NCBI RefSeq assembly: GCF_055900595.2
Contig: NZ_CM148325.1
Strand: one strand, 5' to 3'
Length of the DNA: 64,000 nucleotides
Below the pieces are notes generated by a model. It saw only the letters and a list, made by a program, of their open reading frames with translations, searched no databases and was not told the origin of the DNA. Every line of letters begins with the position of its first letter. Position 1 is the first letter of the stretch. The position numbers and the translations under genes were made by a program. Shown one piece after another: positions 15,014-44,023 of the stretch.

Positions 15014-15154
15014 CGATCTGGATCACATTCATTAACAAAATGGTTGTAACCGTTTCCATTGCTGTGACTCGATTCACGAAGTCCTGAATTCAGTGCTGAC
15101 AAAATAGCCGCCAGCAAGCAGGCATTTACTGCAATCTCATAACAGGTAGTGAAT

Positions 15155-16195
15155 ATGATCACCATTCGTGATGTAGCGCGTCAGGCTGGCGTCTCTGTGG
15201 CAACGGTTTCCCGGGTGCTCAATAACAGCACGCTGGTCAGTGCCGACACGCGTGAAGCAGTAATGAAAGCAGTGAGCGAGCTGGATTATCGGCCAAACGC
15301 CAATGCCCAGGCGCTGGCAACTCAGGTTAGCGATACCATTGGCGTGGTGGTGATGGACGTTTCTGATGCGTTTTTCGGCGCGCTGGTAAAAGCGGTGGAT
15401 CTCGTCGCCCAGCAGCACCAGAAATATGTGCTAATAGGTAATAGCTATCATGAAGCGGAAAAAGAGCGTCATGCCATTGAGGTGTTAATTCGCCAGCGTT
15501 GTAACGCGTTGATTGTTCATTCAAAAGCGTTAAGCGATGATGAATTAGCGCAGTTTATGGATAACATTCCCGGTATGGTGTTAATCAACCGCGTTGTGCC
15601 AGGTTACGCCCATCGTTGCGTTTGCCTGGATAATCTCAGTGGTGCCCGAATGGCCACGCGCATGTTGCTCAATAATGGTCATCAACGTATTGGTTATCTT
15701 TCTTCCAGCCACGGCATTGAAGATGATGCCATGCGCAAAGCAGGCTGGATGAGTGCGTTGAAAGAGCAGGATATTATTCCGTCGGAAAGCTGGATTGGCA
15801 CTGGCACCCCGGACATGCCAGGCGGTGAGGCGGCGATGGTTGAACTGCTGGGGCGCAATCTACACCTTACCGCTGTATTTGCATACAACGACAATATGGC
15901 CGCTGGCGCACTGACGGCATTAAAAGATAATGGTATTGCGATTCCGTTACATCTCTCAATCATCGGTTTCGATGATATTCCCATCGCTCGTTACACCGAC
16001 CCACAATTAACGACCGTGCGTTATCCTATTGCTTCGATGGCAAAATTAGCTACCGAACTGGCCTTACAAGGGGCAGCAGGCAACATTGATCCTCACGCCA
16101 GCCACTGTTTTATGCCGACGTTAGTGCGTCGCCATTCTGTCGCAACGCGCCAGAATGCGGCAGCGATCACTAACTCAACAAATCAGTCGATGTAA
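15155..16195 (+). CDS. galS: LacI/GalR-family repressor GalS (mgl-gal isorepressor)
   Basis: ATG at 15155 gives [24 protein letters not shown] (346 aa); ORF track starts at GTG two codons upstream. Confidence 0.93.
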
Positions 16196-16205
16196 CCGCT
16201 TTCAA
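16190..16205. promoter_or_regulatory. GalR/GalS operator-like site overlapping galS stop codon
   Basis: ATGTAACCGCTTTCAA matches GTGKAANCGNTTNCAC core. Confidence 0.65.
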
Positions 16206-16207
16206 TC

Positions 16208-16223
16208 TGTGAGTGATTTCACA
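16208..16223. promoter_or_regulatory. CRP-binding-site consensus TGTGA-N6-TCACA upstream of mglB
   Basis: TGTGAGTGATTTCACA read directly; mgl operon is CRP-activated. Confidence 0.7.
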
Positions 16224-16474
16224 GTATATTAACAATGCGATAGCTATGATTGCACCGTTCTAACGCTGTAACCTGCATGTAACAGTGAATCATCACTTTC
16301 ACCGAGGTAATAGCGTCATAACAACAATTAAAGCCGTTTTCTGGAGCGTTACCGGGCATGGAAGAACGAATTTTAAAAAGTGAGCTTCGGCGTTCAGTAA
16401 CACTTCATTAACTCTACTGCCCCGCCGAGCATTTATCTCAAGCACTACCCTGCATAAGAAAAACCGGAGATACC

Positions 16475-17473
16475 ATGAATAAGAAGGTGTTAACCCTGTC
16501 TGCTGTAATGGCCAGTATGTTATTCGGTGCCACTGCACACGCTGCTGATACCCGTATTGGTGTAACAATCTATAAGTACGACGATAACTTTATGTCTGTT
16601 GTGCGCAAGGCTATCGAACAAGATGCGAAAGCCGCGCCAGATGTTCAGCTGCTGATGAATGATTCTCAGAATGACCAGTCCAAGCAGAACGATCAGATCG
16701 ACGTATTGCTGGCGAAAGGGGTGAAGGCACTGGCAATCAACCTGGTTGACCCGGCAGCTGCGGGTACGGTGATTGAGAAAGCGCGTGGGCAAAACGTGCC
16801 GGTGGTTTTCTTTAACAAAGAACCGTCTCGTAAGGCGCTGGATAGCTACGATAAAGCCTACTATGTTGGCACTGACTCCAAAGAGTCCGGCATTATTCAG
16901 GGCGATTTGATTGCTAAGCATTGGGCGGCAAACCAGGGTTGGGATCTCAACAAAGACGGTCAGATTCAATTCGTACTGCTGAAAGGTGAACCGGGCCATC
17001 CGGATGCAGAAGCACGCACCACTTACGTGATTAAAGAGCTGAACGACAAAGGCATCAAAACTGAACAGTTACAGTTAGATACCGCTATGTGGGATACCGC
17101 TCAGGCGAAAGATAAGATGGACGCCTGGCTGTCTGGCCCGAACGCCAACAAAATCGAAGTGGTTATCGCCAACAACGATGCGATGGCAATGGGCGCAGTA
17201 GAAGCACTGAAAGCACACAACAAGTCCAGCATTCCAGTGTTTGGTGTCGATGCGCTGCCAGAAGCTCTGGCACTGGTGAAATCCGGTGCACTGGCGGGCA
17301 CCGTATTGAACGACGCTAACAACCAGGCGAAAGCGACTTTTGATCTGGCGAAAAACCTGGCCGATGGCAAAGGTGCGGCTGATGGTACCAACTGGAAAAT
17401 CGACAACAAAGTGGTCCGCGTACCTTACGTTGGCGTAGATAAAGACAACCTGGCTGAATTCAGCAAGAAATAA
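16475..17473 (+). CDS. mglB: Galactose/glucose ABC transporter periplasmic binding protein
   Basis: 332 aa with signal peptide [23 protein letters not shown]. Confidence 0.95.
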
Positions 17474-20150: not shown

Positions 20151-21386
20151 TTACAACGTTACCGGGTGTTCTTTCTCTCCCTTCTTAAACTTCACTTCCC
20201 CGAGATCAATACAACCAACCGGGCAAACATGACCACAAAGCAGACAACCCACGCACTTCTCGGTATTACAATGCGGTGTGCGCGTTTTCTCGCTCCATTC
20301 CATCGCCTGGTGACCGCCGTCGTAACAGGAAATATAACAGCGTCCACAGCCAACACATTTATCGAGATTGATATGGGGATAGACGATATAGCTACGGTCT
20401 AAATCTTCCGCCGGGACAATATTGTGATTCGCCAGACCTACCATCTCCTGCAACGAATCAAATCCCTGATCGGCGAGATAATGCGATAACCCGCTCGCCA
20501 TATCTTCCACTATCCGATACCCGTACTGCATAATGCCGGTGGTCACCTGTAACGTTGCTGCGCCGAGCAATAAAAACTCCGCAGCATCTTCCCAGGTTTC
20601 AATACCGCCGATACCGCTGATCGGGAAATCGCGCAGCTCTGGATGGGTGCGCATTTGCTGAATAAAGCGTAGGGCGATCGGTTTTACCGCTTTACCGGAA
20701 TATCCGGAAATACTCGATTTACCGTTAACGATCGGCATACCAATTTTCTGATTAAGATCGATATTGGTAATGGATTTAACGGTGTTAATCGCCGCAATGC
20801 CATCTGCGCCGCCGCGTTTTGCCGCCAGCGCCACTTCGCACATATCACCGATATTTGGCGTCATCTTCGCCAGCATCGGCAGCTTAGAACCGCGTTTCAC
20901 CGCCCGACAATATTTTTCTACCAGTTCCGGGCTTTGCCCGACATCACTACCCATCGCATGAGAAGTCATTTGCGGACAGGAGAAGTTACACTCGATCATA
21001 TCGGCGCCAGCTTCTTGCACTAGCCGCGCCAGATCCTCCCACTGCTGTTCATTTTCGCCCATGATCGAAGCTATCAATACTTTGTCCGGATAATCTTCTT
21101 TCAGCCGACGCAGGGCGGCCAGATTCTCCTCCAGAGGATGTTCGGCAATCTGCTCCATATTTTTGAAGCCGATAAAACCGGTATCTTCTTTCACCAGATG
21201 ATCAAAACGTGGTGAGACTTCGTTGGCGATAAAAAAGCCGATCGTTTTAAATACCACGCCACCCCAGCCCGTGTCGTAGGCTTTGGCGCACATCTCATAG
21301 CAGTTGCCTACCGGCGAAGAAGAGAGGCAGAACGGGTTGGGAAACTTCACGCCGCAAAAGGTAATCGAAAGATCTTTCGTTAACAT
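20151..21386 (-). CDS. preA: NAD-dependent dihydropyrimidine dehydrogenase subunit PreA
   Basis: [26 protein letters not shown]...; C-terminal 4Fe-4S cysteine clusters; start taken at second Met of ORF. Confidence 0.9.
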
Positions 21387-22618
21387 GAGCAAGCTCCCTC
21401 TAAATAGTGATGAATCGCCTCGGCGGCTTCTTTCCCGGTTTTCACGGCATAAACCACGGTTTTGTCACCCTCAACAATATCGCCAGCAGCAAAGACTTGC
21501 GGGTCGCGGGTCTGGTAATTTTGTGTTTTGATGGTGTTACGCTGCGGCTCTAACTCCGCAAAGGCATCCAGTCTGGCATGCTGACCGACGGCGAGAATAA
21601 TTTTATCTGCCGCCATCGTCAGTTCGCCCGGTAAGCGTACATGCTTAAACGTGACTTTATTGCCTTCCACGGCCACTGGTGTGAATCCATCGATGATCGA
21701 AACGCCCAACTCCCGGGCGCTGGCAAACTCTTTTTCGCTTGCCGGAAACTCATCTAACTCTTCACGTGCTACGCAGGTTACCGCCTGACAGCCGAGAACT
21801 TTCAGCGTGCTGGCAACGTCCATCGCGACATCACCGCCGCCGATAATTAATGCGCTTTGTGGAATGCTGATATCGCCCTGCGCCTGCCGTGCACGTTGCA
21901 AGAAGTCGACGGCAATCTCAACGTCGCTATGCTCAAACAGCGGTAGCCCGGAACCGCCCGACAACCCTACGGTGACAAGTACTGCGCGGTTTTCCGCTTT
22001 CAGTTGCTCCAGGGTGAGTACTTTACCGATTTCGTTATTGCACTTAATGGTCACCCCCATTTTTTCGATACGGGCGATCTCTGCATCCAGCACGGTTTGC
22101 GGCAAACGAAATTGCGGAATACCGTTACACAGCCAGCCACCGGGTTGCGCTTCTTTTTCATAAATAGTGACGTCGTACCCCATATTTGTCAGCGTCACGC
22201 TGGCCTGCAATCCAGCAGGACCTGCGCCAATAATGGCGACTTTGCCGAGCGTTTTAGTACCAGGCTGATAAATTTCCATCCCGGTTTGTTGTTCAAAATC
22301 AGTGATAAAACGCTGTAAGCGACCGATATCAATGGGATCATCAACACCGGCACGGGTACAACCGCTTTGACATAATTTCTCCGTCGGGCACACTCTGGCA
22401 CAAACGGCACCGAGGGCATTATTTTCGCGAATTGTCTCGGCAGCGCCTTTAAAATTACGAAAGTAGATTGAGCGTATAAATTTCCCCGGATCGGTTTGTG
22501 CCGGGCAAGCCTGACTACAGGGCGCGTCGTGACATAATAAACAGCGAGAGGCTTCTTTAATCGCCAGTAAAGGCGTAAAAGCCGGAGTGAGTTCATCCAG
22601 ATAATTTTGTTGCGGCAT
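21380..22618 (-). CDS. preT: Dihydropyrimidine dehydrogenase subunit PreT
   Basis: 412 aa [14 protein letters not shown]...; FAD/NAD Rossmann GAGPAG; overlaps preA start (coupling). Confidence 0.9.
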
Positions 22619-22803: not shown

Positions 22804-22819
22804 TGTGAAAGCATTCACA
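22804..22819. promoter_or_regulatory. Perfect CRP half-site pair TGTGA-AAGCAT-TCACA upstream of preTA
   Basis: Read directly; about 190 bp upstream of preT start codon. Confidence 0.55.
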
Positions 22820-32448: not shown

Positions 32449-32590
32449 TGCACAGAAAACCCCCAGCTAGGCTGGGGGTTCCGGAAAGCTTTCAGCTTTG
32501 AGCCAGTTATTAAAACCCCTTTTGATTTGTTAAAACACCTTGCGGTCTGGCAACTGCAAGTGTCAAACAAGAAATCAAAAGGGGGTCCCA

Positions 32591-38516: not shown

Positions 38517-38689
38517 CAAGTTCTTTTGCGTTGCATTGCTGGCGTAAATGTCAGCAATGCAGCATTTCCTCACGATTCTCCTTTGACGATCGCACTTTTT
38601 GCTCGTTATGATGGCGTTGCTAGCCTCAGTAAATCCTTACTCCGGCGGTGCGCAACCTGTGCGCGTGAACCACTATCTGAATGCTCATC

Positions 38690-39624: not shown

Positions 39625-39795
39625 GTAGGCAGGATAAGGCGTTTACGCCGCATCAGGCATTCGGAGCACAATGCCTGATGCGATGCTTGCGCATCTTATC
39701 AGGCCTACAAACGTGACGCGTCCGTAGGCAGGATAAGGCGTTCACGCCGCATCCGGCATTCGGTGCACGATGCCTGATGCGATGCTTCTATTTGC
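39625..39795. repeat. Cluster of REP elements (BIME-like) between pbpG and dld
   Basis: Repeated GCCTGATGCGATGCTT / GGCAGGATAAGGCGTTTACGCCGCATC units in alternating orientation. Confidence 0.85.
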
Positions 39796-41725: not shown

Positions 41726-44023
41726 ATGAAATGGCTATGTTCAGTAGGTATCGCGGTGAGTCTGGCCCTGCAACCAGCACTGGCGGATGATTTATTCGGT
41801 AACCATCCATTAACGCCTGAAGCGCGTGATGCGTTCGTCACCGAACTGCTCAAGAAAATGACAGTTGATGAGAAAATTGGTCAGCTGCGCTTAATCAGCG
41901 TCGGCCCGGATAACCCGAAAGAGGCGATCCGCGAGATGATCAAAGACGGGCAGGTTGGAGCGATTTTCAACACCGTAACCCGTCAGGATATCCGCGCCAT
42001 GCAGGATCAGGTGATGGAACTGAGCCGCCTGAAAATTCCTCTTTTCTTTGCTTACGACGTGCTGCACGGTCAGCGCACGGTGTTCCCGATTAGCCTCGGT
42101 CTGGCCTCGTCTTTTAACCTCGATGCGGTGAAAACGGTCGGGCGTGTCTCTGCTTATGAAGCCGCAGATGATGGCCTGAACATGACCTGGGCACCGATGG
42201 TCGATGTCTCGCGCGATCCGCGCTGGGGACGTGCTTCCGAAGGTTTTGGGGAAGATACGTATCTCACTTCGATTATGGGTAAGACTATGGTGGAAGCGAT
42301 GCAGGGTAAAAGCCCGGCAGATCGCTACTCGGTGATGACCAGCGTCAAACACTTTGCCGCTTACGGCGCGGTAGAAGGTGGTAAAGAGTACAACACCGTC
42401 GATATGAGTCCGCAGCGCCTGTTTAACGACTATATGCCGCCGTACAAAGCGGGGCTGGATGCAGGCAGCGGCGCGGTGATGGTGGCGCTGAACTCGCTGA
42501 ACGGCACGCCAGCCACCTCCGACTCTTGGCTGCTGAAAGATGTTCTGCGCGACCAGTGGGGCTTTAAAGGCATCACCGTTTCCGATCACGGCGCAATCAA
42601 AGAGCTGATTAAACATGGCACGGCGGCAGACCCGGAAGATGCGGTGCGCGTGGCACTGAAATCCGGCATCAACATGAGTATGAGCGACGAGTATTACTCG
42701 AAGTATCTGCCTGGGTTGATCAAATCCGGCAAAGTGACGATGGAAGAGCTGGATGACGCTGCCCGTCATGTACTGAACGTGAAATATGATATGGGGTTGT
42801 TTAACGACCCGTACAGCCATCTCGGTCCGAAAGAGTCTGACCCGGTGGATACCAATGCCGAAAGCCGCCTGCACCGCAAAGAAGCGCGTGAAGTGGCACG
42901 CGAAAGCCTGGTGTTGCTGAAAAACCGTCTCGAAACGTTACCGCTGAAAAAATCAGCCACCATTGCGGTGGTTGGGCCACTGGCGGACAGCAAACGTGAC
43001 GTGATGGGCAGCTGGTCCGCAGCCGGTGTTGCCGATCAATCCGTGACCGTACTGACCGGGATTAAAAATGCCGTCGGTGAAAACGGTAAAGTGCTGTACG
43101 CCAAAGGGGCGAACGTTACCAGTGACAAAGGCATTATCGATTTCCTGAATCAGTATGAAGAGGCGGTCAAAGTCGATCCGCGTTCGCCCCAAGAGATGAT
43201 TGATGAAGCGGTGCAAACCGCAAAACAATCTGATGTGGTGGTGGCTGTGGTCGGTGAAGCTCAGGGGATGGCGCACGAGGCTTCCAGCCGTACCGATATT
43301 ACTATTCCACAAAGCCAACGTGACTTGATTGCGGCGCTGAAAGCCACCGGTAAACCGCTGGTGCTGGTGCTGATGAACGGACGTCCACTGGCGCTGGTGA
43401 AAGAAGATCAGCAGGCTGATGCGATTCTGGAAACCTGGTTTGCGGGGACTGAAGGCGGTAATGCGATTGCCGATGTGTTGTTTGGCGATTACAACCCGTC
43501 GGGCAAGCTGCCGATGTCCTTCCCGCGTTCTGTCGGGCAGATCCCGGTGTACTACAGCCATCTGAATACCGGTCGGCCGTATAATGCCGACAAGCCGAAC
43601 AAATACACTTCGCGTTATTTTGATGAAGCTAACGGGGCGCTGTATCCGTTCGGCTATGGTCTGAGCTATACCACCTTCACCGTCTCTGATGTGAAACTTT
43701 CTGCGCCGACCATGAAGCGTGACGGCAAAGTGACCGCCAGTGTGCAGGTGACGAACACCGGTAAGCGCGAAGGGGCGACGGTAGTGCAGATGTACTTGCA
43801 GGATGTGACCGCTTCCATGAGTCGTCCGGTGAAGCAACTGAAAGGCTTTGAGAAAATCACCCTGAAACCGGGCGAAACTCAGACCGTCAGCTTCCCGATC
43901 GATATTGAGGCGCTGAAGTTCTGGAATCAACAGATGAAATATGACGCCGAGCCTGGCAAGTTCAATGTCTTCATCGGCACCGATTCCGCGCGCGTTAAGA
44001 AAGGCGAGTTTGAATTGCTGTAA
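41726..44023 (+). CDS. bglX: Periplasmic beta-glucosidase (GH3)
   Basis: MKWLCSVGIAVSLALQPALA signal peptide; 765 aa GH3. Confidence 0.93.
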   Translation: MKWLCSVGIAVSLALQPALADDLFGNHPLTPEARDAFVTELLKKMTVDEKIGQLRLISVGPDNPKEAIREMIKDGQVGAIFNTVTRQDIRAMQDQVMELSRLKIPLFFAYDVLHGQRTVFPISLGLASSFNLDAVKTVGRVSAYEAADDGLNMTWAPMVDVSRDPRWGRASEGFGEDTYLTSIMGKTMVEAMQGKSPADRYSVMTSVKHFAAYGAVEGGKEYNTVDMSPQRLFNDYMPPYKAGLDAGSGAVMVALNSLNGTPATSDSWLLKDVLRDQWGFKGITVSDHGAIKELIKHGTAADPEDAVRVALKSGINMSMSDEYYSKYLPGLIKSGKVTMEELDDAARHVLNVKYDMGLFNDPYSHLGPKESDPVDTNAESRLHRKEAREVARESLVLLKNRLETLPLKKSATIAVVGPLADSKRDVMGSWSAAGVADQSVTVLTGIKNAVGENGKVLYAKGANVTSDKGIIDFLNQYEEAVKVDPRSPQEMIDEAVQTAKQSDVVVAVVGEAQGMAHEASSRTDITIPQSQRDLIAALKATGKPLVLVLMNGRPLALVKEDQQADAILETWFAGTEGGNAIADVLFGDYNPSGKLPMSFPRSVGQIPVYYSHLNTGRPYNADKPNKYTSRYFDEANGALYPFGYGLSYTTFTVSDVKLSAPTMKRDGKVTASVQVTNTGKREGATVVQMYLQDVTASMSRPVKQLKGFEKITLKPGETQTVSFPIDIEALKFWNQQMKYDAEPGKFNVFIGTDSARVKKGEFELL

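Follow-up and report, generated by a model that had tools for sequence, protein, structure and literature searches.

The galS-mglB junction of an Escherichia coli chromosome carries the mglBAC control region known from K-12

Genes and control elements at the junction

The window analysed here, a stretch of 64,000 nucleotides, is part of an E. coli chromosome with the gene order folE-yeiB-galS-mglBAC. A 701-bp query over the site gave a single match in each of 5425 genomes out of 5426 complete ones of E. coli, and these matches fall between genes annotated galS and mglB; in K-12 MG1655 the gene order here is mglA-mglB-galS-yeiB. The isorepressor gene galS (mglD), whose product acts on the operator described below, occupies 15155-16195 on the + strand. 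It was identified by its open reading frame of 347 codons, the RefSeq annotation of the matching E. coli genomes and K-12 b2151, and the K-12 gene stops at the same base. mglB, the first gene of the regulated mglBAC operon, follows on the + strand at 16475-17473 (open reading frame and annotation). The operon belongs to the gal regulon: it requires cAMP-CRP, and its repressors GalS and GalR are released by D-galactose (PMC4073488, PMC2516365, PMC3119520).

The GalS/GalR operator of the mglBAC promoter (O_mgl), ATGTAACCGCTTTCAA, lies at 16190-16205 with no strand assigned, and is supported by K-12 identity, ChIP-chip, mutations and conservation. The stop codon of galS, a + strand TAA at 16193-16195 that ends the open reading frame at the same base as in K-12, takes up operator positions 4-6. 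Both the operator and the stop codon inside it were found where the initial annotation had put them. The gal operator consensus, a hyphenated dyad of 16 bp, is GTGNAANC.GNTTNCAC, and mutations at positions 3, 5, 9 and 15 inactivate such an operator (PMC5110547). ATGTAACCGCTTTCAA agrees with this consensus at 10 of the 12 specified positions, the mismatches being the outermost positions 1 and 16, and all four inactivating positions are intact (G3, A5, G9, A15). Exact matches to the operator core TGTAACCGNTTNCA occur at only two places in the 64-kb window, here and in the galS promoter at 15045. An operator-like match with one mismatch, at 43804, is located inside a 789-aa open reading frame and was regarded as chance.

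A cAMP-CRP site with a perfect core (TGTGA-N6-TCACA), TGTGAGTGATTTCACA, lies at 16208-16223, again with no strand assigned; its evidence is the sequence, a mutation at 16215 and conservation. All 10 half-site bases agree, and the 22-bp site would span 16205-16226. As had been claimed, the core reads TGTGA-GTGATT-TCACA and starts at the third base after the operator, with TC at 16206-16207 in between, so that the local order is ...AATCAGTCG ATGTAACCGCTTTCAA TC TGTGAGTGATTTCACA GTATATTAACAATGCGATAGCTATGATTGCACCG... The claimed distance of about 250 bp upstream of mglB also held, the core ending 252 bp and starting 267 bp before the ATG at 16475. Two perfect CRP cores occur in the 64 kb, where 0.08 would be expected; no shuffle out of 100 gave as many. 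The only other one, TGTGAAAGCATTCACA, is found at 22804-22819, where the intergenic DNA is AT-rich, and precedes by about 190 bp a minus-strand 412-aa open reading frame (21380-22618) that looks like preT (yeiT).

These elements could be placed on published K-12 data. The alignment of the window with the K-12 intergenic region is free of gaps and shows 0 differences over 16188-16227; the operator and the CRP site are therefore identical in K-12. Qian et al. 2016 list a gal regulon operator at NC_000913.3 2240618-2240633, TTGAAAGCGGTTACAT (PMC5110547), which reads as the reverse complement of the window sequence at 16190-16205 and maps to it exactly. The GalR ChIP-chip peak at K-12 2240625, which the authors assign to mglB and for which they infer the site TTGAAAGCGGTTACA (PMC5110547), maps to window position 16198.

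Published mutations map to the same bases. Kinnersley et al. described a mutation from G to T, 3 bp beyond the galS (mglD) end, which gives semi-constitutive mgl expression and sweeps in independent glucose-limited chemostats. In Kinnersley et al. 2021 the same mutation, at 2,238,647 in older K-12 coordinates, swept three chemostats; also reported were a mutation at the adjacent position 2,238,648 and, as a second step, one at 2,238,630 in 'the CRP activator site' (PMC7863352). The two versions of the K-12 coordinates differ by 1978, as checked from mglB coordinates. Position 2,238,647 maps to 16198, which is operator position 9, the G of the central CG and classically an operator-constitutive position, 2,238,648 maps to 16197 (operator position 8), and 2,238,630 maps to 16215 in the spacer of the CRP core. 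The published mglO mutations, which derepress mglBAC semi-constitutively, were in this way located computationally in the operator, at 16197 and 16198.

The mglB transcription start is the G at 16257 on the + strand, equal to K-12 NC_000913.2 2238588 / NC_000913.3 2240566. This start was taken from the supplementary table of Kim et al. 2012, which gives NC_000913.2 2238588 with a 5'UTR of 218 nt, and the upstream 51-mer is CTGTGAGTGATTTCACAGTATCTTAACAATGTGATAGCTATGATTGCACCG, ending in ...TATGATTGCACCG (PMC3415461). Relative to 16257, the operator spans -67 to -52 (centre -59.5), the galS stop codon -64 to -62 (centre -63) and the CRP core -49 to -34, its centre at 16215.5 corresponding to -41.5. 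A -10 hexamer, TATGAT, lies on the + strand at 16244-16249 (-13 to -8, centre -10.5), and was identified by its distance to the mapped start and a majority-base frequency of 0.99. No recognisable -35 hexamer was found, as 16221-16227 agrees with TTGACA at only 1 of 6 positions. A scan for two-hexamer sigma-70 promoters returned nothing at the mgl start; this is expected of a class II promoter, where the CRP site overlaps a poor or absent -35, and does not count as evidence against it. With CRP at -41.5, a -10 element and no usable -35, the anatomy of the mgl promoter is that of a class II CRP-dependent promoter. Our literature search found nothing placing the mglB CRP site as class II at -41.5. 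The Reg-Seq preprints treat mglBp as a confirmed CRP promoter in a text that gives no coordinates; mglBAC shows no in vitro transcription without regulators and is controlled by cAMP-CRP (PMC4073488), and the activity of the mglB promoter increases with cAMP (PMC2516365).

Between the CRP site and the -10 hexamer, TAACA at 16230-16234 (-27 to -23) is invariant in 80 of 80 aligned sequences while its neighbours vary, and no known element accounts for it. A published position-weight-matrix prediction of a PhoP site, TTGTTAAGATACTGTGAAATCA, overlaps 16214-16235 including TAACA (Mendoza-Vargas 2009 supplements), and was not counted as evidence. Apart from this prediction, those supplements give for mglB only an antisense start inside mglB.

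The 218-nt mglB leader (16257-16474, + strand, from the K-12 start mapped to the window) matched no Rfam family and gave no conserved consensus RNA structure, with an RNAalifold energy of about -0.1. Rfam matches at the gathering threshold elsewhere in the window were the Hfq-binding sRNA STnc490 at 32458-32581, the Peptidase-S11 cis-regulatory RNA at 38605-38685 and naRNA4 at 39628-39705. A second K-12 mglB 5' end is reported 140 nt before the ATG, at NC_000913.2 2238510, with 9 reads against 6 for the CRP-dependent start (PMC3415461). It maps to 16335, has a weak AACAAT -10-like hexamer at 16323-16328, and could be a secondary promoter or a processing site.

Conservation of the two sites and of the galS stop codon

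In order to follow the two sites across species, 80 mglB loci were fetched from species-representative genomes by MglB protein similarity, and their retrieval is therefore independent of the sites. All are from Enterobacteriaceae (Escherichia, Citrobacter, Salmonella, Enterobacter, Klebsiella, Raoultella, Kluyvera, Kosakonia, Buttiauxella, Cedecea and others). Together with the window, 81 of 81 sequences carry the composite pattern of operator and CRP site exactly once, and the two centres are always 18 bp apart. Over these 81 sequences 14 of the 16 operator columns are invariant, with variation at the degenerate positions 10 and 13, and the CRP half-sites are invariant in all, changes being confined to spacer bases. 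In the 80-sequence alignment the majority-base frequency is 0.97 for the operator, 0.99 for the CRP core and 0.99 for TATGAT; it is 0.76 for the galS 3' end and 0.75-0.82 for the flanking non-coding leader at 16250-16400.

Both motifs lie within 420 bp of the ATG in 79 of 80 loci. The remaining one, from Citrobacter amalonaticus S646 (L019), has them farther upstream; a first impression that it was without both sites proved wrong. An insertion of about 190 bp in its mglB leader, at about 1740-1930, displaces the operator-CRP module from about -285 to about -479 with respect to the ATG and leaves the module undisturbed.

Within E. coli, no genome in an evenly spaced listing of the 5425 differed at more than one of the 42-43 bases aligned to 16186-16230. 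Between K-12 and the window we observed differences at 16187, at 16228 and at about ten more positions in 16238-16311, and they spare the operator, the CRP core and the -10 hexamer. The 12 substitutions just 3' of the CRP site crowd into about 85 bp (16228-16311), and 16312-16480 is identical. The window allele, at 99% identity or more, was seen in only 14-16 of the 5425 E. coli genomes. One substitution in the cluster changes K-12 AATAAT to AATCAT; the K-12 AATAAT, at about +30, has been reported to be one mutation short of a de novo -10 element (Reg-Seq preprints).

Short degenerate motifs arise randomly, as the single-mismatch match at 43804 illustrates, and both sites could in principle be chance matches with no regulatory role. 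The probability of this is negligible in our view: a perfect CRP core is expected only 0.08 times per window, and ChIP occupancy, adaptive mutations, the geometry of the transcription start and near-invariance in the 80 species loci already refute it.

The stop codon of galS behaves differently from the two sites. It overlaps the operator in only 6 of the 81 sequences, of which five are from Escherichia (the window and L002-L005) and one is a Cedecea locus (L073). The distance from the end of galS to the operator is 12 or 15 bp in 67 sequences (...ITN* or ...ITNL*/S*) and 14 bp in 7 more, which brings the total at 12-15 bp to 74. The codon at 16175-16177 is TCA in Escherichia, as against TGA or TAA in 37 other loci; the Escherichia galS reading frame is therefore six codons longer (STNQSM), and the extended frame meets its first in-frame stop in the invariant ATGTAA of the operator. 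From this comparison of sequences we infer that the overlap is a derived Escherichia trait, an accident of stop-codon loss and not a conserved design. Escherichia lost the ancestral galS stop, and the operator sequence happens to supply a new TAA.

It may be asked whether the operator also, or instead, serves galS, as a roadblock to polymerase reading from galS into the mgl promoter, or by looping to the operators of the galS promoter, which lie about 1.1 kb upstream. Its location at the extreme end of the galS reading frame was counted for such a role, and so was the result that no intrinsic-terminator-like hairpin was found on the + strand between the galS stop and mglB (16196-16474). The labels in PMC5110547 are inconsistent: Table 1 calls the site 'OE (galS)', which together with the 3C contacts among gal regulon operators was likewise counted for it, while Table 3 gives the ChIP peak to mglB and so speaks against it. 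The mutations were selected because mglBAC expression goes up, the operator is tied to the mgl promoter by its coupling in all species to the mgl CRP site, at a fixed 18 bp, and to the -10 element, and in most genera galS stops 12-15 bp before the site. We thus consider a galS-serving operator improbable. The narrower proposal, that in Escherichia GalS/GalR, with CRP, forms here a galactose-sensitive roadblock to polymerases and ribosomes leaving galS, is if anything slightly less probable still. If true, such a roadblock would make both the formation of galS 3' ends and read-through into mglBAC depend on operator occupancy, and would add a second autoregulatory function to a site described so far only as the mgl operator. 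Our preferred reading is that the operator belongs to the mglBAC promoter and that its overlap with the stop codon is a by-product.

Possible mechanism of repression at the mgl promoter

According to the K-12 literature, the mgl promoter is silent without cAMP-CRP. When galactose is absent, GalS (mainly) and GalR occupy the 16-bp operator at -59.5, and D-galactose frees it. Given the need for CRP and a repressor released by galactose, the promoter integrates the condition 'cAMP high AND galactose present'. Judging from the geometry, a repressor dimer would sit immediately upstream of CRP, with a gap of 2 bp, on the DNA which the alpha C-terminal domain of RNA polymerase uses at class II promoters. 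In that position it may block CRP-dependent activation and open-complex formation while CRP stays bound, and not act mainly by evicting CRP.

Steric competition, in which GalS/GalR and CRP are unable to share the adjacent sites and the repressor excludes the activator, is a serious alternative. Only 2 bp separate the two 16-mers, and a CRP site of 22 bp (16205-16226) would overlap the operator by a single base; at mgl the two centres are 18 bp apart, 1 bp closer than at the galS promoter and at galE (19 bp at both, for galE from published positions). In addition, mutual interference is the explanation offered in PMC2516365 for the monotonic response of the mglB promoter to cAMP, on a reading of the EcoCyc diagram as 'partial overlap'. 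On the other hand, GalS, the main mgl repressor, 'prevents open complex formation' at mgl (PMC7863352), which argues against a simple exclusion of CRP. The invariant 18-bp spacing in 81 of 81 sequences suggests a fixed geometry of two co-bound proteins over occlusion. The near-identical layout of galE P1, with OE at -60.5 and CRP at -41.5, points in the same direction, since repression of P1 is reportedly described by Choy and Adhya as acting on bound polymerase. Overall, we regard eviction of CRP as possible but clearly the less probable of the two mechanisms. Anti-activation on a co-occupied promoter is most likely by our analysis, because the repressor would cover the alpha-CTD DNA and because the layout nearly duplicates that of galE P1.

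Taken as a whole, it is very probable that 16190-16257 is the mglBAC control region, in which a class II CRP-dependent promoter is preceded by a GalS/GalR operator that would act by anti-activation, and in which the stop-codon overlap is a by-product. The initial annotation had read the region as the mgl control region, and K-12 identity, the ChIP-chip peak, adaptive mutations, the geometry of the transcription start and the footprint all agree with it; its coordinates were exact against the sequence throughout, and we met no evidence contradicting the identification. The element is the K-12 mglBAC switch in another E. coli strain, and it is real, functional and already known in detail. Binding by GalS/GalR and CRP in this particular strain is deduced from sequence identity with K-12 and may be expected to follow it. 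The case serves mainly as a positive control, in which a textbook regulatory module was located to the exact base from sequence alone. The mgl operator-CRP element is biologically important but already known, and the additions made here are small: the invariance of the 18-bp spacing across Enterobacteriaceae, and the stop overlap as a trait derived in Escherichia.

Comparison with known control regions

The closest comparison is with K-12 mglBp/mglO itself, which had been set beforehand as the refuting test. Both sites are identical and their positions coincide with those of the mapped K-12 operator and CRP site, relative to galS, to the transcription start and to mglB.

The galS promoter, in the same window, repeats the arrangement. 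It has an operator, TTGTAACCGTTTCCAT, at 15044-15059, followed by a CRP site, TGTGACTCGATTCACG, at 15063-15078, in which the right half-site is imperfect (TCACG). The order of operator then CRP site, the strand and the core TGTAACCGNTTNCA are the same as at mgl, whereas the spacing is 19 bp as compared with 18 bp. This layout is kept in 80 of 81 sequences, and the K-12 GalR ChIP peak at 2241771 (PMC5110547) maps to the galS promoter at 15044-15078. Two further published operators of the gal type map close by: 'OI(galS)', GTGGCAACGGTTTCCC (PMC5110547), to 15197-15212 in the coding region for the galS helix-turn-helix, and 'O(mglB)', GTGAAATCCGGTGCAC (PMC5110547), to 17276-17291, about 0.8 kb into mglB, where it is without the central CG.

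The galETKM promoter P1 has in common with mgl an upstream GalR/GalS operator followed by a CRP site at -41.5 (PMC5110547), although the distance from operator to CRP site is 19 bp in galETKM and 18 bp in mgl. Beyond this, galETKM has another promoter, P2, as well as the internal operator OI at +53.5 and looping that depends on HU. For mgl, only the weak operator-like sequence about 1 kb downstream, in mglB at 17276-17291, has been listed (PMC5110547), and the main repressor at mgl is GalS rather than GalR (PMC7863352).
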